Of a stretch of 64,000 nt of DNA, positions 18,473 through 36,027 are shown piece after piece; position 1 is the first letter of the stretch, and the number at the start of each line of letters is the position of its first letter. The DNA comes from a virus. Lineage: Duplodnaviria > Caudoviricetes. The translations under genes were made by a program, and so were the position numbers. The notes under the pieces were generated by a model that saw only the letters and a list, made by a program, of their open reading frames with translations, was not told where the DNA came from and made no database searches. The stretch spans positions 320,001-384,000 of the IMG/VR virus record IMGVR_UViG_3300035208_004923; one strand, 5' to 3'.

Positions 18473-18486
18473 TTTTAAATTTTATT

Positions 18487-18512
18487 TTATATACAGAAAT
18501 TTCAATTAGTTT
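18487..18512 (-). promoter_or_regulatory. class II promoter
   Basis: AAACT-N12-TGTATATAA. Confidence 0.7.
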
Positions 18513-18753
18513 TACTTAATATTTCAAAATTATATGCATGACCTGTTTGTGAGACAACAAATTTAACTTTCATGCCAATATACGGTTTTATTGATTGCCG
18601 TTGCATATATCCTCGGCCGCCTACGTTTTTTGCATCTATTAATACTTGCGGATAACCTTCGCCATCAATTCCTCTTACACTATCAATAAAATATGTTACC
18701 CCATCATCACCTAATACTGCAGCACTGTAACTGTCTTTTATTATTCCTTCCAT
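18502..18753 (-). CDS. hypothetical protein
   Basis: 83-aa ORF. Confidence 0.65.
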   Translation of the reverse strand: MEGIIKDSYSAAVLGDDGVTYFIDSVRGIDGEGYPQVLIDAKNVGGRGYMQRQSIKPYIGMKVKFVVSQTGHAYNFEILSKTN

Positions 18754-19289
18754 TAAAAAATCACTTTTGCATTTTCGTTTAAATATAATTCAGGATCGTA
18801 AGAAACATATTGAATTCTTGCAATATCGTGACAATGTTTATCACGAATTCCACCAGCATCAATTGCAAATGCAGCAGATACTTTCAATTCAGTTTCTTTA
18901 TAAGTTTCTTTTGTTGCTGTTGTTGGAATCAATACTTTTAAGCCATTTCCTGACGGCGTGATAAAAGCAGCAAAAACGTAATTTAGTTTTGTTGCTCTTT
19001 TTTTCAAATCTTCAACATTTTCAACATGGTCAATGTCAAGACAAATGAATCCATTATATTCAGCCATTCCGTTTATAGAACGGGTAATGAATTGTCCTGT
19101 TGGCGTAAAAAGTGGCAACTTGTATTTAAGGTCCTCTCGTTTTTTCTTATCGGTTTCTTTGAAAATTGGTTCAACAAGATTCTTAAATTTGCCGTTTTTT
19201 ATATCAGCAAGAATTTCGGTAATATCTCTATTGCCTGAAGGCGTTGTAACTTTTACAGATGGAAATTCGGAAACAATAAATTTAGACAT
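18753..19289 (-). CDS. VirE N-terminal/BT4734-like primase-polymerase domain protein
   Basis: KLP.FTP.G.F, ICLDIDH, F.TPSGNGLK, D..RIQYVSYDP. Confidence 0.85.
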   Translation of the reverse strand: MSKFIVSEFPSVKVTTPSGNRDITEILADIKNGKFKNLVEPIFKETDKKKREDLKYKLPLFTPTGQFITRSINGMAEYNGFICLDIDHVENVEDLKKRATKLNYVFAAFITPSGNGLKVLIPTTATKETYKETELKVSAAFAIDAGGIRDKHCHDIARIQYVSYDPELYLNENAKVIF

Positions 19290-19301
19290 AATAAAAAGTT
19301 T

Positions 19302-19871
19302 TTAGTTAATACTTGTTGTTAATTCAATGCCGTTTTTTGCAGATTTATTGCGAATTGTGATTAAATAATCTTTAGCAATATTATAATCATCAGTTGCTTT
19401 TTTCAATTCGTTTTTGAACCATGCAGAAACATTTGATTTTAATTTTGTTCCTATCGGGACAATATACGTTTTGCCATCAATGATACTTTCAAAATATAAT
19501 TTATGGTCAGCAATGTTTATAAGTTTACCAGGATGCAGAATTATTCGTTTTGATGAATAATAACGAGGTGATAAATAAGTTTCACCAATTATTGGAGTGC
19601 CAGTAATTGATTGATTTGCAACAGGTTCAGCATATGTTGATTCGTATACAGTAACAATGCCTTTTGCAATATTTTCATCTATAAATTTGCAAGTAAAACC
19701 GTTTTCATCAACGAATTCTTTTCCTTTTGCTGAACATTTACGAACATGATATGTTTTAACACCTTTCTCGAAAATGGAATCTCGTATTTTCATTACTTTT
19801 ACGAATTTTGCAAACCTTGATATTTCTGAAATATCAAGGACTTTTCCGATTAAATTTTCACCTGTTTCCAT
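19302..19871 (-). CDS. hypothetical protein (early)
   Basis: ORF directly after a class I promoter. Confidence 0.7.
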   Translation of the reverse strand: METGENLIGKVLDISEISRFAKFVKVMKIRDSIFEKGVKTYHVRKCSAKGKEFVDENGFTCKFIDENIAKGIVTVYESTYAEPVANQSITGTPIIGETYLSPRYYSSKRIILHPGKLINIADHKLYFESIIDGKTYIVPIGTKLKSNVSAWFKNELKKATDDYNIAKDYLITIRNKSAKNGIELTTSIN

Positions 19872-19880
19872 AAATTTGTT

Positions 19881-19931
19881 TATCAATTAATTAAAATCAA
19901 ATATACAACATTTTTTGTGCAATAGCAATGG
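19881..19931 (-). promoter_or_regulatory. class I promoter
   Basis: repeat copy. Confidence 0.8.
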
Positions 19932-20089
19932 TTTTCTTGATTATTTTATAACGAATCAACCAAATTTCTAATGTCTTCTCTATTCTTCATAGATTCGGAC
20001 GGGTAAACTGGCGTAAACAAAATATGTAAAAATTGAATAAGAAGGATTGCAATAAGGCAACAACCGATAAATAAATCTTCCATATTATT

Positions 20090-20868
20090 TTAGTTTCTAA
20101 GTTTTAACATTTCTCTGCGGTGTGCAACAAATTCAGATGGTTTCATATTGTCACAATCAATATCACCATGGTAATAACTCCAGCATTCAAATGATGGTCG
20201 AATTGTTATGTATTCTTCTAATCCTTCTTTGACAAATTCATCAATTTTTGCTAGCATCAATTCCTCGTTTTTTTCGATTGCACTCGGATTATTTATTATG
20301 TTTATTTTATGGCATTCCCACGTTCCTTTTGAATGTATTAATGAATCAGCATTAATTGTTGGGTCATTTAAATGACTTGGTGCAAGATTTTTACAATCAT
20401 CAATTGCAATCATCCATCTTTGGAATTCAGATATAAGCCATTGAAGTTTTTGGAACTTATCAGAACAAAAAGTATTTGAAATTTCATTAGATAAATCCAT
20501 GAAATTGTCTTTTGAGTTAGGTTTGAATGACATTTCAAAACAAGTCCATAAAGAACCATTCAATAATCTTTTACTTGCATCGTTTTTTATGTAATCTTGT
20601 TTTCGAGTAAGAACTAATGCATTCGGTATTGAGTATTGCAAATCAATTCTGAAGTTTACTTTTGTTTTCATAATTAGCAATTTTGTTTAAAGTTAGACAT
20701 TATAACTGCAATTTCGGATAATGTATTAGATAACTCATTACATGTAAGATACTGATTAGCATCATTTACATATTCTAATTCGATTTCTTCTGCCTTTTCA
20801 ACGTCATTAAATCCACATTTGTTAAGGTCAAAATTAAAATTCCAAATTATATCTTCTGCTGTAATCAT
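20090..20868 (-). CDS. two hypothetical proteins (20090-20680, 20674-20868)
   Basis: ORFs after a class I promoter. Confidence 0.65.
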
Positions 20869-20878
20869 GTTTTATTTT

Positions 20879-20927
20879 TATCAATTAATTAAAATCAAAT
20901 ATACAACATTATTTAAGCAATAGCAAT
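20879..20927 (-). promoter_or_regulatory. class I promoter
   Basis: repeat copy, back-to-back with class III box. Confidence 0.8.
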
Positions 20928-20947
20928 TTTTTACGATACTTTTTTAT

Positions 20948-20957
20948 GAATATATAA
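20948..20957 (+). promoter_or_regulatory. class III promoter GAATATATAA
   Basis: heads plus-strand leader cluster. Confidence 0.65.
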
Positions 20958-20974
20958 AATAAATTATTAATATT

Positions 20975-21214
20975 ATGGAAAGAAGAATACCAACAATTGA
21001 AGAATTTTCAGCAAAGCCAGAAGAAACTAATGAAGCTGTTGGAACTGTAGACTTACATTTCAAAGCAAAAATGTTCTGTCAAGAAGTTTTGAAATTAGGA
21101 ACAAAAAATAACTTATTTGATACTTATATGAAAAGTCATCAAATAAATCCAGATGATTTAAGCGATTTCATGGTAGCAGTTATTGAAAACATTCAAACAA
21201 ATTATTTAGTATAA
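20975..21214 (+). CDS. RIP-leader protein
   Basis: MERRIPTIEEFSAKPEETNEA. Confidence 0.8.
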   Translation: MERRIPTIEEFSAKPEETNEAVGTVDLHFKAKMFCQEVLKLGTKNNLFDTYMKSHQINPDDLSDFMVAVIENIQTNYLV

Positions 21215-21522
21215 TGAAAAAAAGAATACCCACTTTAGATGAACACATTAATGAATCAAAATTGAATGAATTTTGCACTACTACTGTTTATAAATTCTCT
21301 GGCTCTGCTTCTCAATGGAATGAATTGCTTAAACTTTTAGATAAACTTGAGAATAAGAAAGAATTGGCATATGATTCCGAAGATTTACCGTATGGTGCAC
21401 AATCATTTGCAGTATTCGATATTTTGCCAAAAAAACCTGAGACAGTTAATTGTCATATCATAGATTTAGAAACATTAATTCCAAAAGACTTAATGAAATT
21501 TATTTCACCAATATCAAAATAA
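21214..21522 (+). CDS. RIP-leader protein
   Basis: MKKRIPTLDEHINESKLNE. Confidence 0.8.
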   Translation: MKKRIPTLDEHINESKLNEFCTTTVYKFSGSASQWNELLKLLDKLENKKELAYDSEDLPYGAQSFAVFDILPKKPETVNCHIIDLETLIPKDLMKFISPISK

Positions 21523-21530
21523 TAAGATAA

Positions 21531-22640
21531 ATGAAAAATAGAATACCTACGTTTGATGATTTTTTATTCGAAAGAACACCAGATAAAATTCCACATCCAA
21601 AACATAAATGGTTTGAAGTTAATCCAAAAGATTATGACGATTTGGAAGATGATTTTTATAAATTGATTCAAACTGCATATAAAGATGTTCCTGGCGGTCA
21701 CTTGAAAGTTCAAAAACCAGATGACGTATTTGATGCTGGATGGACTTATTGGGTTGCAATGGATAATGATAATAATCCCGATTTTAATGTTGTGAAAGGT
21801 TATAAAGTAACACCATACGGTTATAAATCAGCAGTTGCAGGTCATGATGTTACAAAGGTATCAAAAACTGATTATCTTACTAAATTTGCTGAAGATATGA
21901 GCAAACCTGGTAAATACGCTGAGGTTTCTGAAAAACTAGCAGAAATTCTTATCAATAAATATCATGTTCATATTGTATCAAATCCCGATGCAATTAAAGC
22001 AGTACTTGGTAAAAGCGATGTTGTGTTTTATGGCAAAAATCCTGAGAATCCTTCAATGCCTGGTGATGGATGGTATACACGAAAAATTGCAGGCGGCGTT
22101 CATGCAAAAATATTAGTAGGAAAACCTATTGTACAGGAATCTGTTACAGAAGGACTTGATAACGGTAAACCTACCGTTTTAGTTCTTCACGGATATGAAT
22201 CATCAGTATATCCTCCAAGATTAAAAGTATTATCTGCAGATTATAATTTATTAACGCCTGAAATGGATTATGACCATAACCAAGGATTGTTTGAAAAAAC
22301 ATACCAAACGTATAAAAATGCAAATATTGATTTAATAGTCGGTTCATCAATGGGCGGATACTTTGGATATTATTTAGCATCATTACTTGATGTTCCTGCT
22401 TTATTATTCAATCCCGCGGTAATCGAAACAACATCAGGCATCAAAAAACAAGAAGTTCGAAAAGGCAAATATAATCCTGCAATTTATGTTGTTTCAGGCA
22501 AAGATGATGATATCGTTATTTCATGGAAACTTAAACAATGGTTTAAGGAAAACGCAAGAAACTATGAATTTATTACTGAAAACATGGGACATCGCCCTTC
22601 CGATGAAACTTATATAAAATATGTTAAAAAATATGTATAA
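21531..22640 (+). CDS. RIP-leader protein: unknown domain plus YqiA/YcfP-like alpha/beta esterase
   Basis: MKNRIPTFDDFLFE; LHGYES, GSSMGG, LFNPA, DD, GH. Confidence 0.8.
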   Translation: MKNRIPTFDDFLFERTPDKIPHPKHKWFEVNPKDYDDLEDDFYKLIQTAYKDVPGGHLKVQKPDDVFDAGWTYWVAMDNDNNPDFNVVKGYKVTPYGYKSAVAGHDVTKVSKTDYLTKFAEDMSKPGKYAEVSEKLAEILINKYHVHIVSNPDAIKAVLGKSDVVFYGKNPENPSMPGDGWYTRKIAGGVHAKILVGKPIVQESVTEGLDNGKPTVLVLHGYESSVYPPRLKVLSADYNLLTPEMDYDHNQGLFEKTYQTYKNANIDLIVGSSMGGYFGYYLASLLDVPALLFNPAVIETTSGIKKQEVRKGKYNPAIYVVSGKDDDIVISWKLKQWFKENARNYEFITENMGHRPSDETYIKYVKKYV

Positions 22641-22992
22641 AAGAATACCAACATTTGATGAACATGTAAATGAAGGCACATGGAATAATGAAAAATATGG
22701 TTTCAGAATATCGAAATTTTTAGAACAGCATACAGGTAAAAACCTAACAGGCGAAATGAAAGTTCAAATTATTTTTAACGATTTTTTCAAAGCAAGTACT
22801 TATGAATATGCTAATAATTTATTATTGTGTTCAAGAATCGAAGGTTACATTAAATCGTATAAAATTCTTGAACATGATAGATTGATAGGCAGTTACAGAA
22901 ATATATTTATTGTAGATGTTGATGTAATTAAATGGTACGAATTTTTACGCAAACTAGATGATGGTCATTTAGATAACTTTAAAATATTATAA
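22633..22992 (+). CDS. RIP-leader protein
   Basis: MYKRIPTFDEHVNEG. Confidence 0.8.
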   Translation: MYKRIPTFDEHVNEGTWNNEKYGFRISKFLEQHTGKNLTGEMKVQIIFNDFFKASTYEYANNLLLCSRIEGYIKSYKILEHDRLIGSYRNIFIVDVDVIKWYEFLRKLDDGHLDNFKIL

Positions 22993-22995
22993 GAA

Positions 22996-23268
22996 ATGAA
23001 AAAGAGAATACCAACATTTGATGAACATGTAAACGAAGGCATATTGCAAAGTTTTATTGATTTGTTCAAGAAAAAACCTGATGTAAGTACATGGACGCCA
23101 CCAGAATTTAAAATTGAAGCAACATTAAAAAAGATTTTAACTGACGATGGCTGGACAAACTTAGGACGTGATGAAGAAGGCCGACTAATCGGAAACAATA
23201 CAAAGTACGGCGGTAATGGATTAGATGTTATCGAAACAATGCGTGATGAAAAAAAATTAAACTTCTAA
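22996..23268 (+). CDS. RIP-leader protein
   Basis: MKKRIPTFDEHVNEG. Confidence 0.8.
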   Translation: MKKRIPTFDEHVNEGILQSFIDLFKKKPDVSTWTPPEFKIEATLKKILTDDGWTNLGRDEEGRLIGNNTKYGGNGLDVIETMRDEKKLNF

Positions 23269-23269
23269 T

Positions 23270-24043
23270 ATGAAAACCAGAATTCCATCTTTTGATGATT
23301 TCTTATTTGAATCTAATGATAGAATCATTACATTATATCATGGGACGGCTTCTGGGAAATTATCATCTATAAAGCTTAACGGACTTGATACTAATGCAGA
23401 AACAAATCAAAAAACGCATGGCTTTAATACAAGTAATCAAATTTCATTAAGCTTTAATTATTCTGATGCATATTATTATGGTTCATTATTTGTTAAAACA
23501 AACGAACCAGTTACTGTTTTGATAATTAAACTTCCGTATTCGTATATAGCAGGAAAAGGGCTTTCGTTAAACGAAGTTCTTGTTAAACAAAATATATCAT
23601 CAAAATACATAATAGGTGCATATAAAGACAAAGATATCGTAAAATTAGATAAATTGTCAACAAATGAAACATATGTAAATCCTGATATGCTATCAACAAG
23701 TGATTTGCAACATTATAAGTCGCATTATAAAATTAACGAATCAATTGATGCCTTAGAAAAGATGGGGATCCAAGCAGATCCTGACAAACCTTCAATATTC
23801 TTATATACGATATATCGTACGCCAAGTTCCGATGAAATTAAGGAATTTGAAAATTATCCGCAACTTACAGCTGATGAAATATTGAACGGTTTTTGTTATA
23901 CATGCATTGGCAGAGGAATTACGTCAAGTAGAAATATTGCATTAATAAAAGATAGCATAAATATGCTTATTGCTGCATACCCAGATGATCCTCGATATAC
24001 TGAAGCATTAAGAATAAGCGATGAATTAAAACCTAAATTTTAA
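23270..24043 (+). CDS. RIP-leader protein with putative H-Y-E ADP-ribosyltransferase-fold domain
   Basis: MKTRIPSFDDFLFES; TLYHGT..SI..NGL, ISLS, A..Y, NEVLV..NI. Confidence 0.6.
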   Translation: MKTRIPSFDDFLFESNDRIITLYHGTASGKLSSIKLNGLDTNAETNQKTHGFNTSNQISLSFNYSDAYYYGSLFVKTNEPVTVLIIKLPYSYIAGKGLSLNEVLVKQNISSKYIIGAYKDKDIVKLDKLSTNETYVNPDMLSTSDLQHYKSHYKINESIDALEKMGIQADPDKPSIFLYTIYRTPSSDEIKEFENYPQLTADEILNGFCYTCIGRGITSSRNIALIKDSINMLIAAYPDDPRYTEALRISDELKPKF

Positions 24044-24246
24044 AACATTACTTCATAAATTGTTTTACCTTTTTCTGTAATTTCCCATTCGTTTTTCTCA
24101 TTGCATACAGCAAGTCCTAAATGAACCATTTTTTGCAATGCTAAAATTATATCTTCTTCAGAAATATTTTCAATAATCGGAAGCTCATGAAAGATTTTTT
24201 CTTTTATGAGCTTCGTGTATATTATGCTTACTTGTTTATCATTCAT
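24040..24246 (-). CDS. small winged-helix-like protein
   Basis: L.KMVHLGL...WEITEKG. Confidence 0.5.
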   Translation of the reverse strand: MNDKQVSIIYTKLIKEKIFHELPIIENISEEDIILALQKMVHLGLAVCNEKNEWEITEKGKTIYEVMF

Positions 24247-25010
24247 ATTAATTGTCCTTTCTTATTAAATACCATGTATCTAAATTTTATGCCCGATTTT
24301 AGTACAGCAGCCATTTTTAACGCATTTATATCTTCATTTTTTTGAAATGTCCATTCTGATTTAACTTCAATTATAGTATGCAAAGACTTGATATAAATAT
24401 CTGGCACATATAAATGCTTTTTTTCATTACACACATAAAAAATATTGCCAAGTTCTTTGCGTATAGCTTTTCCTCCTATTATTATATCTTCTTCATTATA
24501 AGATAACAGCAATAATAAAATTGCTTTATTTTCGTATCCTTGCGTTTTCACAACAGCGCCTGACGGCAATATGAATTTATGCCATTTATATCGACCTCCG
24601 TAATTCAAAGCATCTGCCCTTTTTATTTTGTTCTCCTCTATACTATTGTATAATAATAATTTTTGTGATAAATTCTCTCGCCATTTTGCGTTATGTGATA
24701 CAGCTTTCATAGATTCTGAAACGCGTGCACGAAGTTCATGAGTCCATCTATTTGGATCCTTAAGATGTATTTCCATTTTTTCTTTGTACATTGGATCTTC
24801 ATATTTTTTTTTCATACTGCAATTTCGCGAACACGCAACTCTCCTATATGGCGTAAACATTTTACCGCATATCGGGCAAGCAATATCTTGCAATTTATTT
24901 TTTTGTATTCTTGCTTTGCCAATGCAAGAACGGGAACAAAATTGTGCACTTTTTTTATTTGTTTTGAATTCTTTGTTACATACCGAACAATTTTTAATAT
25001 ATGTTGTCAT
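24243..25010 (-). CDS. putative homing endonuclease (Zn fingers plus PD-(D/E)xK)
   Basis: CSVC..FCSRSC, CPICG; YVPDIYI...IIEVKS; paralog of 44393-45235. Confidence 0.7.
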   Translation of the reverse strand: MTTYIKNCSVCNKEFKTNKKSAQFCSRSCIGKARIQKNKLQDIACPICGKMFTPYRRVACSRNCSMKKKYEDPMYKEKMEIHLKDPNRWTHELRARVSESMKAVSHNAKWRENLSQKLLLYNSIEENKIKRADALNYGGRYKWHKFILPSGAVVKTQGYENKAILLLLLSYNEEDIIIGGKAIRKELGNIFYVCNEKKHLYVPDIYIKSLHTIIEVKSEWTFQKNEDINALKMAAVLKSGIKFRYMVFNKKGQLI

Positions 25011-25058
25011 GATTTTTATTTATATATTAAAAGATACGCATTGTTATTTTGAAGTTAT

Positions 25059-26795
25059 TTAAAATCTTACATATACACATCTATCTAAAAAATCTTGAGG
25101 AAACATATGTCTATTCTGCGTAATTAGCCTGAAAAAATCGCTATCTAGAATATACGTTGTTGCGTAATCGTTTTCATTCCTAACTGAACGACCAACACCC
25201 TGTAAGACCGACAGTATTGTAATCCATGCGTACCAATCTTTATCTGTCTTCATTTTCGCATTTACGAATTTGTCCATGAGCGATGGGTAAGGAACTTTTG
25301 CAAATATTTGAAACCGGGACTTATCATTTCCTAAATCTAATCCTTCTAATAGACTGGGACCCATTAGAACTTTATTGTTTGCACTGCTAAAATCAAATAA
25401 AACATTTTTTTTATCTGAACTATTTATGTATGAAATAATTCTATCACTTTTTATGTTTTCATTCAAGTATACACTATTTGTGTAACTTCCGGTGTGAATG
25501 ATTCCATTCTCATTTTTGTGTTTTTCTAAAATTTCTGTTATTTTATTTGCAATTTTTGGCAAAGCAACTTCTTTATTTTTAAACGACATGCTTACACCTT
25601 GATAAATTAATATTGGCGAACGGTCAAAATTGAATGTACTAGGTATTTTTCTATACTTTGCATTGTTTGCATTTATACTTTTTGCAAACAGCGTAGGTTC
25701 ACCCATCGTTGCTGTCATCATGACAGCAAAGTTATTTTTGTCATGAAAATGTTTTTTCATGAGGTATTTTTCATTGATGCAATTAAACTGTATATTTGCA
25801 CCGTTTTGGTTTTTAATCATTGCTCTAATATCAGTTGACGCAATAATTTGATTATAATCTTCAAATTTACAATGTAGATCTTTGCATTCATCGCACAAGT
25901 TTAATCCTTTTCTCCATTCTGCTGGAACTGATTTGCCAGCATATTTTCTTCCTACGAATTTTTTTATTTCATCGGCGTGTTGAACAAACGAATGAAGCAT
26001 TTTCTCAAACATTCTGTTATGAATAAACAATTTTGCATTATCGTCTTCAGCAACAATTTTATTTATGATTTCTTTCAATTCATATCCGCTATACGGAACT
26101 GCCATTGAATGTTCAGCAAGGAATCCTCGTAAACGTTCAAGCATAGGATATGTATTATCATTTACAATAGGACTAAAGTGTTTTTGTACAATGTTAACAA
26201 CTTTATGCGCCTCATCGCATATAATAAAATCACGTTCATCAAATAACGCATGAGACGAATCCGTCATTTTTTCCAATACGTAATTCATTTGTATCAAATA
26301 ATACGAATAGTTGAATATTGATGTTGGAGTAAAACTTGCGTAATCTCTTGCAAAATAATAAGGGCAGTCCTTATAACATGGTAGTTGTTTTGTTGCATTT
26401 GAATTTAAGTGCTTCATTTTACATTCACCAAGACTATGTTTTTCTTGGTTTTCTGTACAAAGATAATTATCAACACCTTTTACACTTCCAAATCCTAAAT
26501 GCAATTTCAATACGTCTTGTTCGTATTGGTCTTGTAATGCAAGATCTGATGATAGAATATATCCTTTTTTGCCGAATCTGTTTAATACATATGAGGAGCA
26601 TAATGCAATTAATGATTTACCGCTACCTGTTGGTGCGTCGATAAGATATATCTTTTTTTCTTCACCCATGCATGTTGCAACAACATCAATAATTGCTTCT
26701 TTTTGACCTGTCCTGAACTCGAAATTTGTCCACCCATGATTTTTAACGAACATGTCAATATATTCGTTTATTTTATCTTCAAGTTCTTGATTCAT
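25059..26795 (-). CDS. DinG/Rad3-like SF2 helicase
   Basis: APTGSGKS, DEAH, TAT, EGLD, QGVGRSVR. Confidence 0.93.
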   Translation of the reverse strand: MNQELEDKINEYIDMFVKNHGWTNFEFRTGQKEAIIDVVATCMGEEKKIYLIDAPTGSGKSLIALCSSYVLNRFGKKGYILSSDLALQDQYEQDVLKLHLGFGSVKGVDNYLCTENQEKHSLGECKMKHLNSNATKQLPCYKDCPYYFARDYASFTPTSIFNYSYYLIQMNYVLEKMTDSSHALFDERDFIICDEAHKVVNIVQKHFSPIVNDNTYPMLERLRGFLAEHSMAVPYSGYELKEIINKIVAEDDNAKLFIHNRMFEKMLHSFVQHADEIKKFVGRKYAGKSVPAEWRKGLNLCDECKDLHCKFEDYNQIIASTDIRAMIKNQNGANIQFNCINEKYLMKKHFHDKNNFAVMMTATMGEPTLFAKSINANNAKYRKIPSTFNFDRSPILIYQGVSMSFKNKEVALPKIANKITEILEKHKNENGIIHTGSYTNSVYLNENIKSDRIISYINSSDKKNVLFDFSSANNKVLMGPSLLEGLDLGNDKSRFQIFAKVPYPSLMDKFVNAKMKTDKDWYAWITILSVLQGVGRSVRNENDYATTYILDSDFFRLITQNRHMFPQDFLDRCVYVRF

Positions 26796-26816
26796 TATTT
26801 ATCTAATCTTTTTATG

Positions 26817-26852
26817 TAATATATAATTATATACATAAAGTAAAAAAAGTTT
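26817..26852. promoter_or_regulatory. interlocked divergent promoters: class III (+, 26817-26826) and class II (-, 26827-26852)
   Basis: TAATATATAA and AAACT-N12-TGTATATAA. Confidence 0.6.
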
Positions 26853-26855
26853 ATC

Positions 26856-27296
26856 ATGAATCAACGAATACCTACGTTTGACAATTTCCTGTTTGAAGCA
26901 GGAATAAAATATGAACCTGGTTCGATTAGCGAACTATTAGCAGGACTGCGCGGTAACCAAGAGTTTTATGATTTTTGCAAAAAACATGGACATCCAAATC
27001 CACAAGCCTGGAATCCTATGGAATTTACGATGAGTTCTTGTACATTCGTTGCAAAATTTTTAGAGGAAAAAGGATTTGGTAAAGCATTATCAAGTCACGG
27101 TCCATACGGCATGGCACCACATGCTTTTGTTTTGTATAACGGATTATATTATGATTATGAAGCAAGAGAAGGCGTTAAGAATGTTTATGACTTGCCAAAC
27201 TTTCAAGATTTACGATACAATGTTAAAAAAGGTGATTCCTGGCCAAATTACAAAAAAGAAATAGTCAAAAACGTACAAAATTTTAATTTTCAATAA
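26856..27296 (+). CDS. RIP-leader protein (possible Cys-His-Asp papain/transglutaminase-like fold)
   Basis: MNQRIPTFDNFLFEA; SCTFVA...HAFV...YYD. Confidence 0.7.
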   Translation: MNQRIPTFDNFLFEAGIKYEPGSISELLAGLRGNQEFYDFCKKHGHPNPQAWNPMEFTMSSCTFVAKFLEEKGFGKALSSHGPYGMAPHAFVLYNGLYYDYEAREGVKNVYDLPNFQDLRYNVKKGDSWPNYKKEIVKNVQNFNFQ

Positions 27297-28210
27297 TGAA
27301 GCTACGAATACCAAATTTTGATGATTTTATATTTGAATCTAATTATGAATGGATTCCAATGACCGTTGCATCTGCTAAAATTGTTGCTGATGGCATGATA
27401 AAATTGTTTGCGCCAAATAGTGATGAAATTGCAAAAAACAAAAAAATTGCCGAACTTGTATTAGCTGCGCTAGAAAAGCATATTGAACGTATGAAGTATT
27501 TCGATAAATTTCCCGACTTCAAGAAATTGATTGAGGATAACGTAAAACATATAATTGCAAATGATAAACGTCATGGCATCGAACCTGAAGACCCAAACAT
27601 GGTTAAGGCATATGCAATGGAATATGCAATGGAAACAATTTACGAAAGAACAAAGGGCCAAGAATCACAAGAAGAAAAAGACAAGAAAACACAAGTTACA
27701 TTTTTCAATAAAGTTTTTAATGAAGGCGCGGCATTACGCACAAAAGCAATTACAAATGCTGGTTTGAAATTTTACAAACAGAACTTGTTTGCATTTGAGG
27801 AAATAAACAGAAAATTACGAACAGATCATTCAAAAATGAGTGAGCATGATTGGTCAGTTGCAACTGATGTAGGAAATGCAATTGACTTATTTAAAACATC
27901 AAAAGAAGTAACGGTTTTCCGTATTATTGATTCTGAAGATTTTCCATTTTCATTAAGCAAAGGAAAAAAGTTTACAGAAAAAGGAATACTGTCAACATCA
28001 TTTGACATTAATTATCTTTTAGAAAACAAAGAAAATTTTGAATCACCAGTTATATTGCAAATAGTAGTTCCGTCTGGCACTACATATTACAGATTTCCGA
28101 ATGATTTTGAATCAGAAGTAGTTTTTGATTGTGATCATGAGATTATAATAACTGATAATTCATACGAATATTTAGACACACCAATCATAAAATGCAAAAT
28201 TATAAAGTAA
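27296..28210 (+). CDS. RIP-leader protein with VIP2/Alt-like ADP-ribosyltransferase
   Basis: MKLRIPNFDDFIFES; INRKLR, TVFR, STS, ESEVVF (R-S-E triad). Confidence 0.85.
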   Translation: MKLRIPNFDDFIFESNYEWIPMTVASAKIVADGMIKLFAPNSDEIAKNKKIAELVLAALEKHIERMKYFDKFPDFKKLIEDNVKHIIANDKRHGIEPEDPNMVKAYAMEYAMETIYERTKGQESQEEKDKKTQVTFFNKVFNEGAALRTKAITNAGLKFYKQNLFAFEEINRKLRTDHSKMSEHDWSVATDVGNAIDLFKTSKEVTVFRIIDSEDFPFSLSKGKKFTEKGILSTSFDINYLLENKENFESPVILQIVVPSGTTYYRFPNDFESEVVFDCDHEIIITDNSYEYLDTPIIKCKIIK

Positions 28211-28212
28211 CA

Positions 28213-28587
28213 ATGAATCAACGAATACCAAATTTTGATGATTTTGTTAATGAAGCAAAATCTGTTCCTAGAGAAAATACAGAACGTGAAACTGTATTAG
28301 ATTACATTATCAAAAACAAACAAGTCCGTTTAGAAAAGCTCAAGGAAATTAAAGCGCCTGAAATTATCATCACAGGAACTGAGAACCAAATACATTTATT
28401 AAAATCAGGTCAATCAAAAATTAAAGGACTTGACATTTACGGTTCTAATATTTATAAAACGTTGGAATGGAGAAAAGGCAATGGTGGAGTTGATTTCATA
28501 CAATTTGTAATGAATGATGATTCAGTTATAAATTATTTTCCAAATGCAAAATACGGAGCATTTTTCGCACCTAATACTAAAAAATAA
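28213..28587 (+). CDS. RIP-leader protein
   Basis: MNQRIPNFDDFVNEA. Confidence 0.8.
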   Translation: MNQRIPNFDDFVNEAKSVPRENTERETVLDYIIKNKQVRLEKLKEIKAPEIIITGTENQIHLLKSGQSKIKGLDIYGSNIYKTLEWRKGNGGVDFIQFVMNDDSVINYFPNAKYGAFFAPNTKK

Positions 28588-28907
28588 TGGAAAGCTTATA
28601 TATCATAACAGACGGAGAAAAATACAAAATAGGTTATAGCAAAGACGTGGCTAATCGTAAGAGACAACTACAGACAGCAAACGGATCTTTACTGGATATT
28701 GTATTTGAATTTGAAACGGTTCATGGAATGAAATTAGAAAGATCCATTCAACGGTCAATGAAACATAAAAACATTATCGGCGAATGGTTTGATTTAGAAA
28801 AAGAAGATATTGCAAAAATAAAAGAACTTTGTATTTTGCAAGAAAAAAACTTTAACATCATAAAGAAAAATGAAACAGAGAATTCCTACGTTAGAGGACT
28901 TTATTAA
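28587..28907 (+). CDS. T5orf172/MUG113 GIY-YIG-like domain protein
   Basis: LYII...YKIGYS...R..QLQT, GEWF. Confidence 0.85.
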   Translation: MESLYIITDGEKYKIGYSKDVANRKRQLQTANGSLLDIVFEFETVHGMKLERSIQRSMKHKNIIGEWFDLEKEDIAKIKELCILQEKNFNIIKKNETENSYVRGLY

Positions 28908-29325
28908 TGAATCGTCGAATGAAATTTTCACTAGTTCTGACATTATAGATTTGCAAAAAAATGGTGCAAGACCAGACGACACTTGGCAATCAATAAAATC
29001 ATCGGCAAAATTTCAAAAAATAGATAATGTTAGTATTTCAAAAATTAATTGGTCAGAAAAAAATGTTGATATTTTAAAGAAACAAGAACGCAGATTAAAC
29101 CGATTATTCGATGAAGATGATGGCACACAATACTATAAAGATGCCATTAAAAGAGAACAGTCAGAATTACAGCATATACAAAATCTTATTCAAATGGTAA
29201 AAAGCAATAAAAAATTAAATCCGATTGTTGTAGATTCAAATTATAGATTGCTTGATGGTTTTCATAGAATAGGTGCATATCAAATTGCAGGTAAAAAAAC
29301 TATTGACATATTTAAAGAAATTTGA
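28870..29325 (+). CDS. RIP-leader protein with ParB/Srx-like domain
   Basis: MKQRIPTLEDFINES; PIVVD...LLDGFHR. Confidence 0.8.
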   Translation: MKQRIPTLEDFINESSNEIFTSSDIIDLQKNGARPDDTWQSIKSSAKFQKIDNVSISKINWSEKNVDILKKQERRLNRLFDEDDGTQYYKDAIKREQSELQHIQNLIQMVKSNKKLNPIVVDSNYRLLDGFHRIGAYQIAGKKTIDIFKEI

Positions 29326-29379
29326 TAATTTTTAAATTTATACTGCATGTGCCATTACAAAGAAAAATATACATACACA

Positions 29380-30126
29380 ATGAAAAACAGAATACCAGCA
29401 TTTGATGACTTCATAGTTGAACGAGAATTTCCATTTACAGATACATCATTTGTTACACGGATTCTTACTAAATTAAAATCTCAAATTTTAGAAAAAAATT
29501 TAGGAAACCTTGAAGTTGAAACAATTTTAAATAAAGCATTTAGAAGTTTTTTAGTTTCTTTTGAAAGTAACAGTGGACAATCTGCATTTGATGATATGAC
29601 TAGAGTCGGACTGATTCAATCACGAATTGACCAAGACGGCAACATAATTGTTGATTATGCAGATTATTTTTATGAAACATTTGAAGACGAAGAATTATAT
29701 GATGAATTTGGAACAGTTCTTGCAAGAATTCTTGCGCATGAAAGAACGCATGCAGGCCAATTAGATAAAATACGAATGGGAAGAAATTCTTATGACTTTT
29801 ACAACATTTTAGGAAAAATAGGTAAAGACCCATCAAACCGTTTTAAATATTTGTCAAGCAAACAAGAAATGATGGCATTTGCGGTTGAATGCGTAGAAGA
29901 ATTCAGAGGAATGGGATATTCCGATTCTGATATTTTACGTAAAATTAAAACACCGTTTAAAGACTATCAAGAATCCAATATTTTCTATTTATACATTGAC
30001 TATTTCGATTATAGAGGTCATGTATTCGATAACGACGAAAAGGAAAGAAAAAAATGCAAAGACGTAATTGACGGATTCTTAAAATATATGTATCAATATA
30101 TAACAAAACCGAAATCTTTAGAATAA
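29380..30126 (+). CDS. RIP-leader protein with HExxH zincin motif
   Basis: MKNRIPAFDDFIVE; LAHERTHAGQ...QEMMAFA. Confidence 0.75.
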   Translation: MKNRIPAFDDFIVEREFPFTDTSFVTRILTKLKSQILEKNLGNLEVETILNKAFRSFLVSFESNSGQSAFDDMTRVGLIQSRIDQDGNIIVDYADYFYETFEDEELYDEFGTVLARILAHERTHAGQLDKIRMGRNSYDFYNILGKIGKDPSNRFKYLSSKQEMMAFAVECVEEFRGMGYSDSDILRKIKTPFKDYQESNIFYLYIDYFDYRGHVFDNDEKERKKCKDVIDGFLKYMYQYITKPKSLE

Positions 30127-30590
30127 TGCAATTTAAACAACTATTAAATATGAATGAAGCAAAACAAATTTGGAACAAAAAAGTGTTCCTAGGTGGCACA
30201 TGTAATGAATCTAAATGGCGTGATGAATTAATCAAAAAACTTAAGATTGACTATTTCAATCCAGTTGTTCCAGATTGGACCGAAGAATGCTATCAAGAAG
30301 AATTAAGACAACGGGAATCATGCGATTTTTGTTTGTACGTTATTACACCAAAAATGACAGGCAGTTATTCAATTGCTGAAGTAGTTGACGATTCAAATAA
30401 ACGTCCAGAAAAAACTGTTTTTTGTTTTGTTTCAACAGATGAAGATAAAGAATTCGATAAAGCACAAAACAAAAGTTTGGATAAAGTTGGCGTAATGGTT
30501 GCATCTAATGGCGGTACTTATTTGAAATCATTAGATGAAGTTGCAAACTTTTTAAACATGGAATATTACATAGAGAATAATGAAAAATAG
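30126..30590 (+). CDS. nucleoside 2-deoxyribosyltransferase-like protein
   Basis: KVFLGGT, WR, YFNP, YSIAE; short MQFKQLLNMNE leader. Confidence 0.8.
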   Translation: MQFKQLLNMNEAKQIWNKKVFLGGTCNESKWRDELIKKLKIDYFNPVVPDWTEECYQEELRQRESCDFCLYVITPKMTGSYSIAEVVDDSNKRPEKTVFCFVSTDEDKEFDKAQNKSLDKVGVMVASNGGTYLKSLDEVANFLNMEYYIENNEK

Positions 30591-31590
30591 AATACCTACA
30601 TTTGAATCATTTGAATTTAATGATTGCACACAATTATTTGAATTATCGAATAATAGTACTTTATATCATCATTCAATGGCAAAATTTAAAGTAGGTGATG
30701 TAATTACTTCACAGAAAAATGGTGATGGCGTTCATTGGCTTGCAAATGATCCAATGGAAATTGGATTAGAATTTTTCAGAAAAAAACATTATCCTGATAG
30801 ACCTTCACGTTTCGATTGCGTATATTCAAGCATAATCCCAAGAACGCGATTTTCAGACAAAGGATATTTATATGTAGTGCAACCAGTTGGAAGTCTTTTT
30901 ATGACAGATTCAATGATTATTGATAGCTTAGGCGATGAATTTATGAGAGAACGAATGACCCCGTATTATGAAACATTAACTATTAATGATTTCAAAAAAA
31001 ATCCAGAGGAAGCTGAAAGAATTCTTTCTTATTATTCTGCAAAAAGATATTGGGATGGCGTTAAATCGCTGCCTAGGGAAAGATGGGGCGATATTGAAGT
31101 ATTATCAAATTCCGCAATTGTGACACAGGTAATTGAAGATTCAGGAACAGTATTACGTCCAGGAATGGATGTTGTGGTTACGGAAGATAACATTATAGAT
31201 GTGACAATGACTATTTATAATCAGCACCCGAAAGAAAATGATACTCAATTATTCGATAATGAACAAATTGCAACAATGTTAAGTTATATTGAAAAACATA
31301 TCATAAACGGCAAATTTGAACAGCAATCTTATAATAAAAATGTCTATGATATTCGCGGGTATTTAAGAAAAGATGCAAAACTTAAAACTACATTTATACG
31401 TACAAATTTAGCAAAAAATGTGCATACGTATGATACCGTAAAAGGAAAGTATAGTTTAATAACATTCGATTTATACATCGATGGCCATTTATTCAAACGT
31501 GCAAATGAAGCACCGCTTTTCAGACTTGAAACAGCAATGTATTTGAAAAATAAAGCTTATGATATTGGTATGTATCTAAAGAAAGTTTAG
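30580..31590 (+). CDS. RIP-leader protein, DUF2441/ART-like N-terminal domain
   Basis: MKNRIPTFESFEFND; E.FR...YP.RPSR..C.Y, LY.V, YW.G, EVL. Confidence 0.65.
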   Translation: MKNRIPTFESFEFNDCTQLFELSNNSTLYHHSMAKFKVGDVITSQKNGDGVHWLANDPMEIGLEFFRKKHYPDRPSRFDCVYSSIIPRTRFSDKGYLYVVQPVGSLFMTDSMIIDSLGDEFMRERMTPYYETLTINDFKKNPEEAERILSYYSAKRYWDGVKSLPRERWGDIEVLSNSAIVTQVIEDSGTVLRPGMDVVVTEDNIIDVTMTIYNQHPKENDTQLFDNEQIATMLSYIEKHIINGKFEQQSYNKNVYDIRGYLRKDAKLKTTFIRTNLAKNVHTYDTVKGKYSLITFDLYIDGHLFKRANEAPLFRLETAMYLKNKAYDIGMYLKKV

Positions 31591-32558
31591 TAATACCAGC
31601 AGCCAAGGCATTCTTCGATTCTGTTATCAAATTCGTATAAATCAGATAACGTTTGCTCGCCTTCTGGAAATGGCTCGTTTGTTTCAATTTTTTGCAATAA
31701 ATCTTTAAGGTGTTTTACAAGATCTGTTCTAACTTTATTCGTTAGTTCTATTTCAACACTTTTTTCCATTACTTATTATCTATAATATCTTTGATTGCTT
31801 TTTTGTTTTTGATAAAGAATACCTCAACTCCATCTTCATCGTCAATCGAATCCAATAAACCTTTACGTTTTAAATTGTAAAGAAACACTGTTGACGCGCA
31901 GTTTTGTATTTCTAATAGCAATTCTTCTTCTGTAGGTTCTGTTAGATATAAACAAATAGTGCCGTCTTCGATAAAGTTTTTTAATGTCTTTTCGCCATAA
32001 ACACTAGTTATTGCTGCTTCATAAACTTCATCCGGCGCATCGGTAACCATCTCGTTTCTTGATGCAGCGTCATCAATCAATACTGCTTTTAATGTAGGAA
32101 CAAACGATCTTAAGTAATCCTGAATTTCTTCAGGATACTTAGGAAGGTTATATGTATTATTGTTGAAAGTTATCATAATCCTCTTTACTTTTGAATTCAT
32201 TAAACCCTGTGATAATTAGATTAGACGTACTTGTATTTCTATCCATTATTTGTTGTTTCAATTTTGAATACAATGGCATTGTTTCTGATTCAACGTAATG
32301 AATACCGTAGCCGGAAGCCGAACGTTCATCTTTTCGTCCTTCCATGTATATATAGTAAAAAATAAAATATCTCATTATTTATCTGTAAAGAATTGTTAAT
32401 GTATAACATACTTCGAGGTAATGTGTCGATTCCTTTGTTGATTGTGATTGCGTCATTTGCAATACTTCGATACCTTGAGCTTCTTCAGATATCAACCAAT
32501 TATTCATACCATTTTCAATATCGCTAGGATAATTTCCGCTGATTACTTTTACTTTCAT
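31587..32558 (-). CDS. four small hypothetical proteins (31587-31769, 31769-32200, 32157-32375, approx. 32379-32558)
   Basis: packed ORFs. Confidence 0.55.
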
Positions 32559-32559
32559 A

Positions 32560-33819
32560 TTACATTAAATATTTAATTCCGTTTACTTCAATAAAATATC
32601 TGAACCAAGATTCATTACGAATCTCCGATTCTTTCATTGTTTTTTCTTCACTTCTGTAAGAATATCTGTCAGGTTTTTCTATATTGATAACTATTTTGTT
32701 ATTCTTTTCATCTAATGTATACTTTCCAGTTACATAAGTACTTACCTTTTCTATATCAGATTGTACCCAACTGTACGAATTTCTGTATGGCTCATTAAGA
32801 TATCCGTTGCCGACAAATTTAAATGTTCCACGACTTTTAGATATCATTGGATATAATGATGTTGAATATCCACGTGAGCATTTCGATTTCCATTTTACAA
32901 TTTCTTCGTCAATGTTAACAGCTTCTTCAAAAACACTTGATACTTTAATTTTGTTCAATGACAACAAATAATTAGCATTCGATTGTCGCATGTTAATTTT
33001 ATTTGGTGCATAATTTGGCGGTTCATTTTTTAAAACTTTCAAATCATAACTTTGTTTTGCAAGATTATATGTATCGACAAATTCCTCAATAGAAATAACA
33101 GATTTTCCAGATGGCTTCTTTGTTATTACTTGTAATGATGTGAAGAATTCATAATCGCCATTTGAATCCATTAGCACATGTAAACGTTCGTCTTTTATTG
33201 TGTAATGAGCAGAAGATCTGTACGCACTGAATGAATGACTTGCAGAAATACCCCAGCATTTGCCAATGTATGTGTATATTTTTTCATTCTTCATTTCGAT
33301 TTCATCACCATTCAACAAATCCGTAGGTTTTATTGTAATTGCATTTTTCTTTCTTGTTGATTCTGTGGCAGACTCATATAATGCAGAATTTGTTGCAAGT
33401 AAAGCAAGATCTTTACCTTCCCATGCCCATACACAAGTGCCAACAAGTTTTCCTTCAATGATTGTTGAATTGCAAACCAATGCAACTAAATTTGCTGCTG
33501 TGATTTCAAGGTCAAATCCATAAGGATCTGATATTCTGAACATTGTTCGTCCAGAAGAAAACCATTCGGAACTTCTTTTATCAAATTCACTAAAGTAAAA
33601 ACCTTCACGTGGAATATTGTCGAGAACCTGTGGCGCAATATTTTTATCTCGCCATCCTTCCCAAGATGTCTCTTTACGTAATTTGCCTTTGTCTCTAAAA
33701 GTTGCATATCCAAGTAAATATGATGGGCCATCAAAGTATTCTCCATCTACACCTCTAATATGCTTATGCTGTCTTTTATTGAAACCTACTTCAATTTTTT
33801 CAGGAATTATCAATGCCAT
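32560..33819 (-). CDS. hypothetical phage protein
   Basis: 419-aa ORF. Confidence 0.75.
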   Translation of the reverse strand: MALIIPEKIEVGFNKRQHKHIRGVDGEYFDGPSYLLGYATFRDKGKLRKETSWEGWRDKNIAPQVLDNIPREGFYFSEFDKRSSEWFSSGRTMFRISDPYGFDLEITAANLVALVCNSTIIEGKLVGTCVWAWEGKDLALLATNSALYESATESTRKKNAITIKPTDLLNGDEIEMKNEKIYTYIGKCWGISASHSFSAYRSSAHYTIKDERLHVLMDSNGDYEFFTSLQVITKKPSGKSVISIEEFVDTYNLAKQSYDLKVLKNEPPNYAPNKINMRQSNANYLLSLNKIKVSSVFEEAVNIDEEIVKWKSKCSRGYSTSLYPMISKSRGTFKFVGNGYLNEPYRNSYSWVQSDIEKVSTYVTGKYTLDEKNNKIVINIEKPDRYSYRSEEKTMKESEIRNESWFRYFIEVNGIKYLM

Positions 33820-33826
33820 AATTTAT

Positions 33827-34237
33827 TTAATTTTTAGTTAGTAAATATTTTAATTTTTCAATTTCTTGAAGTTTTTCTTCAATTTGTTTGTTGATTTCAG
33901 CATTTCTTTTTTTGTCTGCCAATTGTTGTGCTGTCATTTTTGCTTCTGCTTCCTCTTCTTGTATTTTATCTGCAAGTGTTTTTGCATTTATTACAATAGG
34001 ATCATTTAAAGGAAAAATACAAACTTCATAATCACTAATTGTTTTTTTAGGATCTGCTTTTCCACTATACGGACGATAGCTTCCTGCTTCTCTTATAAAA
34101 TTTTTCAAAGCATCAATAGCACCTTTGGATGTTGCCCATGATGCTTTAGGTTGACAACCAGGATTAATAAATTTTGTATCACCAACTAATCGAATGCGAT
34201 ACATGAATTTTTCTTTCGGCTTTTTAATTTTTGACAT
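33827..34237 (-). CDS. hypothetical protein, paralog of C-terminus of 34254-35354
   Basis: YRIR..GDTK..PG....W...AIDA.K...DYE.C..P.NDPI. Confidence 0.75.
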   Translation of the reverse strand: MSKIKKPKEKFMYRIRLVGDTKFINPGCQPKASWATSKGAIDALKNFIREAGSYRPYSGKADPKKTISDYEVCIFPLNDPIVINAKTLADKIQEEEAEAKMTAQQLADKKRNAEINKQIEEKLQEIEKLKYLLTKN

Positions 34238-34253
34238 GACAATAAGATTTTAA

Positions 34254-35354
34254 TTACTTAACGTTAATGTATTGAGTTTTAAGCAATTCGATTTCTGCAA
34301 TTTTTTCATCAATTGCTTTTTGTAAATCTGCTTTTTTCTTTTTAATTTCGCGTTGTTTTGCGGATAATGCCTTTTCTTTTTCTTTTTCAATACGTAATCT
34401 TACAAAAACATCAGCAGAAACTGTAATAGGATCATTTACAGGCAGCATACAGATTTCGTAATCTGCTAATGTTTGATTTCCATGCATATGACTTTTAATA
34501 GCGTCAATTGCACTTGAAGCACGTTGCCATGTTGATTTCGATTTATACCCAGGTGATAAGTATTTTGTGTCACCTTTCATTCGAATTCTGTATAAATATT
34601 TTGGTTCAGCAGGTTTTTTGCTTTTTGCAACTGCTGCAGTTACCGCATTATTACTTTTTTTGCATGAATCCTCATTATTTTCTTTCATTGCATCAATGAT
34701 TGATGTAATGCCATTCTTTTTCGATTTTAATGGAAATTCAGTATTTGATAATTGAGCTTTGATATCTTCATACTCAGCTTTTTGCTCAACTATTGTTGGC
34801 ACTCTTGTTAATCCCATATAAGCATGTATTGTTCTGTCTTGTCCTGCAATTGTGCGAGAAGAAGGTGTAAATGTTCCTGGTTTTATTAAAGCGTCAGGAT
34901 CTGTAACAACTGTTGACCTTGTAACTGGTGTAGATGCTTTATCATTAATTGAAAGTTCACCTGACTTTTCATTATAATCAACATCAATTTTTGAAATTGC
35001 ACCTGTACGTATTGCAGCAGCAAATGTTACATCTTTAATGTCAAACCCATTGATTTCTAATGTTTTTCTAACTAAAGTAGTTTTATCAAGAACGATTTTC
35101 TGTTTGTACTTCATGTCAGCAGGTTCATTAATAGCAAATGTTAATGAATATTCATTATCAGATACTGTAATAATAAAACCGTTCTTTACTCTAATTTTGT
35201 CAGTTCCATTGATAATGGCATTAGACAAATCGAGAATTGTTTCATGTTGCAAACGAGGTTGCATAATGTTTGCCATTTTAGGCAATGAACCTAAAAGATT
35301 CATCCAGTCGAAGTTATCGACAAGTGCTTGTGCTAAATTGATTGGTGTTGTCAT
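34254..35354 (-). CDS. hypothetical protein
   Basis: 366-aa ORF, shared C-terminal domain. Confidence 0.75.
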   Translation of the reverse strand: MTTPINLAQALVDNFDWMNLLGSLPKMANIMQPRLQHETILDLSNAIINGTDKIRVKNGFIITVSDNEYSLTFAINEPADMKYKQKIVLDKTTLVRKTLEINGFDIKDVTFAAAIRTGAISKIDVDYNEKSGELSINDKASTPVTRSTVVTDPDALIKPGTFTPSSRTIAGQDRTIHAYMGLTRVPTIVEQKAEYEDIKAQLSNTEFPLKSKKNGITSIIDAMKENNEDSCKKSNNAVTAAVAKSKKPAEPKYLYRIRMKGDTKYLSPGYKSKSTWQRASSAIDAIKSHMHGNQTLADYEICMLPVNDPITVSADVFVRLRIEKEKEKALSAKQREIKKKKADLQKAIDEKIAEIELLKTQYINVK

Positions 35355-35359
35355 ATTTC

Positions 35360-36027
35360 TTATAATTGTGATTTAAAAATGTCTAAATGTTTTGCGGTTG
35401 ATATTGTGTATAAATGTTCGGTGAGTTCTGTACAATTATGATACTTTTCAAAATTACGTATCATTCGATTGCATGCGTTGATATGTCCTTGACGTGTGCA
35501 AGATTCAATAGTTTTGCAAATTTTTTCTACGCTATCTTCAATTATTATAGCTGTATATGGATTCCATGGAATCCATATTTCCGGTGTCTCGTTCATTATT
35601 TTGTTAATTTAGTTAGCATGTATTGTACTTCAGATTCTGTTAGTTTGATTACGTTCTTCAATTTTATTTTGCAGATTTCATCAATTGATAACATGGAATA
35701 CACTAATGAATTTTCATTGTCGGCAATCAATAATGCAACGGCAAATGCAGTTGTTGTATCATTAGCAACAGCAAGGTTTTCATTTAACGTTTTTACCGTT
35801 TGTCTGAAATTTGCATTTTCAATTGCAGCTTCAGATAATTCATTTTGTATTTCATTAATACTCCAAAGTTTATTTTCGATTTCCGTCCCGTTCAAAAAAG
35901 AAAAATCACTTCGAATATTACTTCGGAATCTTTCCAATTCTCCAGGAAATGCTTGTGCAAAATATGAATCAGAATTCATCAATTCTTCAATCAATTTAAT
36001 TTCGGCGTTTTTCGATAATGTTCCCAT
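35360..36027 (-). CDS. two hypothetical proteins (35360-35596, 35596-36027)
   Basis: TAATG-coupled ORFs. Confidence 0.65.

Follow-up and report, generated by a model that had tools for sequence, protein, structure and literature searches.

A capsid-targeting-like leader on enzyme-like genes of a Lak-related jumbo phage points to cargo probably loaded into the head

Phage T4 packages its internal proteins (IPs) and the ADP-ribosyltransferase (ART) Alt and injects them into the host, where they act against defences or redirect its RNA polymerase (PMC9958956, PMC12373910), and packaged ARTs as such have precedent (PMC9503650). In the ten-residue capsid-targeting sequence (CTS) of T4, residues 4 and 7 serve targeting and residues 8 and 10 processing (PMC9026906), and the cuts in Alt fall at ITE and LTE (PMC5694885). 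Here we describe an interval (positions 21531-31590) in a window of 64,000 nucleotides, C1:320001-384000, of the 425,361-bp viral contig C1. The interval contains ten open reading frames (ORFs) tagged with a common 14-residue leader. An earlier interpretation made from the letters of the DNA (the sequence-only reading) had described the cargo of this leader as an enzymatic toolkit for host takeover and counter-defence. Our analysis did reveal evidence that the leader is a counterpart of the T4 targeting sequence and that, by analogy with T4, the tagged proteins are probably packaged in the head. We also find some reason to favour, with more reserve, that this cargo acts on the host before the phage expresses its genes.

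The leader follows the pattern M-x-x-R-I-P-[TSN]-[LFI]-[DE]-[ED]-[FYH]-[ILV]-x-E. A profile search recovered it in about 65 ORFs, all on contig C1 and nearly all at the N-terminus, compared with 0 copies per shuffled proteome. The leader of gene 21531 (genes are named here by their start in the window) spans 21531..21572 on the plus strand, and further plus-strand leaders in the interval start at 22633, 22996, 23270, 26856, 27296, 28213, 28870, 29380 and 30580, the last of which deviates from the consensus. Counted back from the Glu, the conserved positions L/F/I (47/47), F/Y/H (47/47), I/V/L (41/47) and E (38/47) fall on T4 CTS positions 4, 7, 8 and 10; the hydrophobic residues sit 6 and 3 residues before the cleavage position, with a hydrophobic-x-Glu at it. 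What is conserved is the amino-acid sequence; the codons vary synonymously. The leader therefore appears to be the version of the T4 targeting sequence used by this phage. Leader DNA is slightly more alike between neighbouring genes (0.74) than between distant ones (0.69; permutation p < 0.0002), which suggests that the tag was copied locally from gene to gene. Leader copies also occur inside polyproteins and at the C-termini of esterases; an enrichment of internal cleavage motifs in the tagged proteins was not significant (p 0.1-0.6).

Loading into the head is supported by the T4-type capsid protein and protease of the phage, the anatomy of the leader, a late-type promoter box and the presence of leaders on homologues in other phages. 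Contig C1 encodes a major capsid protein of the gp23 type (PF07068, E 2e-36) and a prohead protease of the gp21 type (PF03420, E 5e-12). The capsid protein most resembles that of an uncultured huge phage (47%), followed by those of the Prevotella Lak phages (~40%), which identifies the phage, on sequence grounds, as an uncultured T4-like, Lak-related jumbo phage. The gp21 domain lies inside an ORF of 683 aa (C1:280540-282591, minus strand); the rest of this ORF contains many [ILV]-[NT]-E sites and is probably a fused scaffold.

The promoter-like element is a AATATATAA box (GAATATATAAAATAAA consensus), found 26-38 nt upstream of each plus-strand cluster in the interval. The box at 20949..20957 (+), a candidate late promoter, heads the first tagged cluster (20975-24043), that at 26818..26826 (+) heads the second, and a third at 30095..30103 (+) precedes gene 30126. 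The gp21 ORF and many virion-type genes have it too, 20-35 nt before their starts; among the latter, sheath and tube genes were recognised by eye only, NCBIfam giving no match. Within 60 nt of the start the box is present in 13/65 leader genes vs 50/580 other genes, and it is a candidate promoter of the late type. The tagged genes are stop-start coupled. The tagged block is interrupted at 24243-26795 (minus strand) by genes for a DinG/YoaA-like helicase and a zinc-finger protein resembling homing endonucleases, the latter with a AATATATAA box of its own at ~25028, and a T5orf172/MUG113 gene without leader lies inside the block at 28587-28907.

The tagged proteins are small and soluble (median 146 aa, the largest 387 aa; a transmembrane-like stretch in 1/65), contain at most two domains and no MuF, and have mutually unrelated bodies except for two duplicate pairs. 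Some consist of acidic repeats or coiled coils, and recognisable enzymes account for about 11 of the 65. Enzyme-like genes make up 7/10 of the tagged genes in the interval vs ~4/55 elsewhere, a comparison in which the interval had been picked for its enzymes and the other 55 were judged without folding; the proposed toolkit holds as a description of the interval and is overstated for the genome as a whole. Those outside the interval are a ParB/sulfiredoxin (Srx) protein, a 2H phosphoesterase, an M16 peptidase and a possible RNase fold. Leader arrays were also identified in two other large phages, where they include genes for ART-PolyVal, R-S-E ART, ParB/Srx and GNAT proteins and also an esterase. 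ParB is enriched among leader-bearing ORFs of other phages (p 0.002), and the lineage-specific leaders of these phages keep the spacing of hydrophobic residues and Glu. Judged from these sequences, the link between tag and enzymes is general across large phages. The literature searched, with incomplete coverage, held no description of such a leader in Lak-related phages.

All eight ORFs singled out in the sequence-only reading were recovered on the plus strand with the starts it gave, 29380 being the second Met of ORF 29347-30126, and its assignments proved sound to different degrees. Its R-S-E ART, gene 27296 (27296..28210, +), encodes 304 aa with a helical N-domain and an ART domain carrying R209, S233-T234-S235 and E272-x-E274. 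In 16 homologues the Arg and both Glu of the E-x-E are invariant and the S-T is near-invariant; their profile matches Vip2 at E 1e-23 and PF03496 is matched in 16/16. These profile matches confirm 27296 as an R-S-E ADP-ribosyltransferase of the Vip2/C2 type. E-x-E is the motif of protein-arginine ARTs, and by this rule the enzyme would ADP-ribosylate an Arg residue of a protein. Its homologues in other large phages have Glu-ended leaders of their own. The nearest annotated relative is a head-associated MuF-ART fusion of a Microbacterium phage, and tblastn at E<=1 against 50,697 phage records returned only Microbacterium MuF-ARTs and no Alt. As an orthologue of T4 Alt, 27296 was ruled out, showing no sequence similarity over the ART domain. 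Its single-sequence AlphaFold model had a predicted local distance difference test score (pLDDT) of 41 and was unusable, and single-sequence PDB searches with 27296, 23270, 30580 and 30126 gave nothing significant.

The two further ART-like candidates are supported in part. Gene 23270 (23270..24043, +) encodes an N-terminal domain with the motif order H24 (H-G-T), S59/S61 (S-x-S), Y68 and E102, followed by a C-terminal domain of no known type and with an internal I-N-E|S at residues 155-157. Its Atlas model, of moderate confidence, adjoins DarT/PARP/Tpt1 clusters, and an ART fold of the H type is probable. Gene 30580 (30580..31590, +) combines an N-terminal DUF2441-like domain (H30, S83, E173) with a small ferredoxin-like C-terminal domain. 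It matches PF10386 (DUF2441) at E 1.3e-3, below cut-off, and phrog_5663 at E 8e-7, while an Atlas structure of moderate confidence matches clusters of the ART clan at a template modelling (TM) score of 0.55. DUF2441 belongs to that clan in Pfam (PMC7955679), and an ART fold is again probable. Elsewhere on the contig the phage encodes an untagged homologue of WGR-PARP proteins (C1:38148-39446, minus strand; PF00644, E 7e-22).

Gene 21531, proposed as a GxSxG esterase, is an esterase in its C-terminal half; the reading had missed an N-terminal domain. This first domain (21573..22139, +) was recognised from 43 homologues, an AlphaFold2 model and structure search, and its invariant residues are H57, D78, K99, H105, D106, E131, S133 and R184. 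The model reaches pLDDT 93, Foldseek matches N-acetyltransferases at E 2e-4, VIA returned GNATs in each of its 50 rows (best Z 10.0, root-mean-square deviation 3.5, 139 residues aligned) and the Atlas gives TM 0.58-0.60 to Acetyltransf_1. On this modelled structure the N-terminal half is a GNAT fold. Its family has G-H-D-G-x-K in place of the acetyl-CoA motif R/Q-x-x-G-x-G/A, the loop is short, and there was no Pfam or PDB sequence match. Between the two halves lies V-T-E|G (22143..22154, +), which resembles the T4 Alt sites ITE-6 and LTE-619 (PMC5694885) and is a plausible prohead-protease site. The second domain (22155..22640, +) is an alpha/beta-hydrolase of the YqiA/UPF0227 family (PF05728, 34.5 bits, cut-off 21), has the triad S273-D326-H354, invariant in 25 homologues, and is related to the esterases 4fle and 9bi7 in the PDB.

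Among 65 distinct GNAT homologues, the esterase follows directly in 40, is fused in 2 and lies nearby in 16, so that the two are paired in 58/65, although many of these homologues are related, so that the pairings cannot be counted as independent. The Atlas contains a cluster of 50 such fusions, and nearly all GNAT homologues start with lineage-specific leaders. A leader-like tail ends 15/41 stand-alone esterases, largely of one clade, and seven of those that follow a GNAT end in L-N-E and a leader-like peptide. It is possible that the tag also functions C-terminally, and these tails weaken the view that the esterase always stays out of the head. The pair is apparently an undescribed conserved module of many large phages; we found no description of it in the literature searched.

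The remaining cargo includes further candidate enzymes. The predicted ParB/Srx protein 28870 (28870..29325, +) is well supported: it has an intact P-I-x-V...D-G-x-H-R core with the active-site Arg (D129-G-F-H-R133) and matches seven ParB PHROGs, the best of them a ParB-like nuclease at E 4e-5, as well as TIGR00180 at E 0.002, with Pfam ParB_N below cut-off. It would act on DNA or nucleoside triphosphates (NTPs) if it behaves like its relatives. A match of 28870 to Tad3 (E 0.012, 15.8 vs 27 bits) was dismissed as chance. A ParB/Srx-like protein encoded at 6947-7960 of the window (minus strand) has an internal leader copy at residue 256 and is related to a tagged ParB at C1:158489-159217. Gene 29380 (29380..30126, +), read as a HExxH zincin, indeed encodes H120-E-x-x-H124 and E163 and is the best match among the tagged proteins to a phage-zincin profile, at an E of only 0.02; from its motif it is a probable zincin metallopeptidase. 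The Cys-His-Asp hydrolase suggested for 26856 (26856..27296, +) is possible, with C62, H89 and D100 in the right order for a papain/transglutaminase-like triad.

The adjacent gene 30126 (30126..30590, +) is nucleoside 2-deoxyribosyltransferase (NDT)-like as proposed (PF15891, E 8e-12, 45.9 vs 30 bits; conserved Glu E85). It gave no match to the leader profile and has no RIP leader; it begins with a bolt-on extension of 19 residues ending in M-N-E|A. Most close homologues start directly at the domain (37/56 distinct ones), which identifies the extension as an addition, and Glu-ended extensions occur in about five large-phage homologues. A short tag, as read earlier, is plausible. A second NDT-like gene without leader (C1:273537-274067, plus strand; PF15891, E 2e-5) adjoins tagged genes. 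Three tagged ORFans complete the interval, two of 119 and 90 aa (22633..23268, +) without family or homologue and one of 124 aa (28213..28587, +).

Outside the window, an Acb1-like 2H phosphoesterase (C1:267345-267902, minus strand) has a degenerate leader, both HxT motifs and a PF23474 score of 27.3 bits, exactly at the cut-off of 27. As judged from sequence it is the clearest direct hint that anti-CBASS cargo bears the tag, and the sole cargo in a named anti-defence family. An M16 (insulinase-family) peptidase gene (C1:401114-402274, minus strand) also has a degenerate leader, with its own promoter box. A tagged protein of 128 aa (C1:219027-219413, minus strand) shows a pattern resembling BECR/RelE-type RNase folds, without a family match. 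Two tandem tagged genes at C1:264594-265663 (minus strand) have identical bodies and different first codons, and by their sequences are a recent duplication.

The ends of contig C1 repeat with a period of 420,768 bp, which indicates a complete circular phage genome of ~421 kb. The cellular part of its genome bin is archaeal by RpoB, and the phage contig was therefore mis-binned; 425 kb of bacteriophage sequence make up a quarter of this archaeal bin, a binning error in the reference. Scarce Shine-Dalgarno motifs and A at -3 are signs of a Bacteroidota host, and their frequencies here (9/448 and 253/448 genes) point to such a host. Phage DNA is present in landfill and groundwater metagenomes, possibly its source; one contig of an independent assembly from there is identical to window positions 20976-36000 with zero differences and may come from the source sample. 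RNA runs held short pieces at a small share only and gave no evidence of transcription or habitat. Short repeated intergenic elements in window 18473-20945 (near 18480, 19890 and 20890) interrupt other assemblies, and in one groundwater run their depth is very high.

[quoted passage not shown] Already there when phage gene expression begins, the cargo of this block would comprise an Arg-type mono-ART, two additional ART folds, a GNAT and its partner serine hydrolase, a nuclease or NTPase of the ParB/Srx type and two probable peptidases. By modifying host proteins or nucleotides it would blunt first-line defences, and it would favour transcription of the phage by the host polymerase; the GNAT would acylate, and the hydrolase may reverse the acylation or hydrolyse acyl-CoA. 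To the central statement, that cargo enters with the DNA and modifies host proteins or nucleotides before phage genes are expressed, we assign a probability of about 0.55. The genome, in which no RNA polymerase of the phage's own was found, encodes a sigma-70-like factor and NAD salvage genes, and these three features were counted in its favour; the salvage genes, at C1:287287-291729 (minus strand), encode a nicotinate phosphoribosyltransferase (above cut-off), a nicotinamidase and a Nudix hydrolase.

Several points weigh against this statement. Packaging, cleavage and ejection are predicted here from the example of T4. That the cargo acts on the host or on its defences is likewise an analogy, and no substrate evidence was found for any cargo of the interval. 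About 85% of the tagged proteins genome-wide fall into no recognisable enzyme family, and those resembling core filler may be degraded rather than ejected. The N-terminal leader is lacking in 55/61 stand-alone esterases. No PHROG match and no detectable similarity to Alt were found for 27296, no Pfam match and no homologue in viral or metagenome contigs or phage records for 23270, no homologue or family for 29380, and no family and no homologue among 5.8 billion proteins, phages and metagenome contigs for 26856. Together with 30580, the last three had no homologues in any of these sets, in searches that depend on shared words and leave absence unproven.

Three other explanations have to be weighed against host modification. 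The packaged proteins might serve the particle or the phage DNA, with peptidases and esterase maturing or clearing the core, GNAT, ART and ParB modifying, protecting or processing phage DNA, and many small cargos acting as core filler. Where packaged proteins contain zincin and ParB domains, these have been proposed to act in autoprocessing or on invader DNA (PMC5512222), 23270 lies nearest to the DarT/Tpt1-like ARTs that act on nucleic acids, several tagged proteins are acidic repeats, and conservation of the GNAT-esterase pair across distant phages suits housekeeping better than an arms race. However, 27296 bears the motif of protein-arginine ARTs, an Acb1-like protein is tagged, and ORFans without relatives make up most of the cargo, which would be expected of conflict genes with fast turnover; we consider service to the particle unlikely. 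The leader might otherwise be a cassette for late expression or gene capture, providing promoter, start context and a short homology arm, with the enzymes acting late in the cytoplasm. The local resemblance of leader DNA, the stop-start coupling and the mostly leaderless homologues of the NDT-like protein and the esterase would fit. Such a cassette does not explain conservation as amino acids, nor the match to T4 targeting and processing positions and the spacing retained in other phages, and a translation signal would be useless inside polyproteins or at esterase C-termini, which makes this explanation highly improbable.

The sequence-only reading went further than host modification in general and named host RNA polymerase and nucleotide signals as targets of an injected takeover cargo. 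Its first part, head-loading, is likely. For the polymerase one can cite that 27296 shares the ART clade and Arg-type motif of Alt, that the phage depends on host RNA polymerase and that the GNAT Rac of phiKMV-like phages acetylates the alpha subunit of RNA polymerase (PMC7824862); for nucleotide signals, the NDT-like fold has been grouped with TIR/SLOG nucleotide-processing domains (PMC9503650). However, the 50,697 phage records and the PHROGs contained nothing similar to Alt, 28870 scores far under the cut-off for Tad3, and the interval encodes no known anti-CBASS or anti-Thoeris family. The polymerase target is unsupported, and we regard these specific targets as quite unlikely.

A bolder proposal is that large T4-like phages of Bacteroidota-type hosts load GNAT and YqiA-type esterase as a writer-eraser pair, alongside dozens of further enzymes and ORFans. 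Within minutes of infection the pair would add an acyl group to a target in the host or the phage and take it off again. We put this forward tentatively, as doubtful at present. If true, the leader would let the whole injected proteome, new anti-defence proteins included, be read from sequence. Cargo injected before phage gene expression decides survival of restriction and other first-line defences, and the three tagged internal proteins of T4 have all turned out to inhibit defence. With about 65 candidates marked by a sequence tag, the Lak-related jumbo phage offers a finite screen and specific enzymes to assay, and the GNAT-esterase pair is a concrete module, apparently undescribed and common to many large phages.

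Compared with known systems, the tagged set is closest in outline to IPI-III of T4 (PMC9026906, PMC12373910, PMC3012670), with which it shares a short leader at the N-terminus of otherwise unrelated proteins, hydrophobic residues where T4 has its targeting positions, an [ILV]-x-E site, gp21 and gp23 of the T4 type and clustered variable genes. T4 has three tagged genes vs ~65 here, where the leader has 14 residues with an R-I-P core, and Ip1-3 are small GmrSD inhibitors, whereas many cargos here are enzymes and packaging is predicted from sequence. The head-packaged ARTs Alt and VIP2 and the MuF-ART fusions (PMC9958956, PMC9503650) resemble 27296 in the R-STS-ExE arrangement and a Glu-ended propeptide; unlike Alt, 27296 has an unrelated helical N-domain and lies outside the Alt-like context of baseplate genes. 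Polyvalent proteins (PMC5512222) have a similar repertoire of ART, GNAT, zincin, ParB and 2H domains and are predicted to be co-injected with DNA, but join many domains in a single chain, frequently together with MuF, while here the domains are mostly single proteins with leaders of their own. The GNAT-esterase protein agrees with the YqiA/UPF0227 esterases in its intact Ser-Asp-His triad and with GNAT N-acetyltransferases in its fold (Z ~10), and differs from both families in that the phage version links the two as a conserved gene pair or fusion. The principle is already known from T4 internal proteins, Alt and polyvalent proteins; the set described here differs in its scale, in having one tag per domain and in the GNAT-esterase pair.

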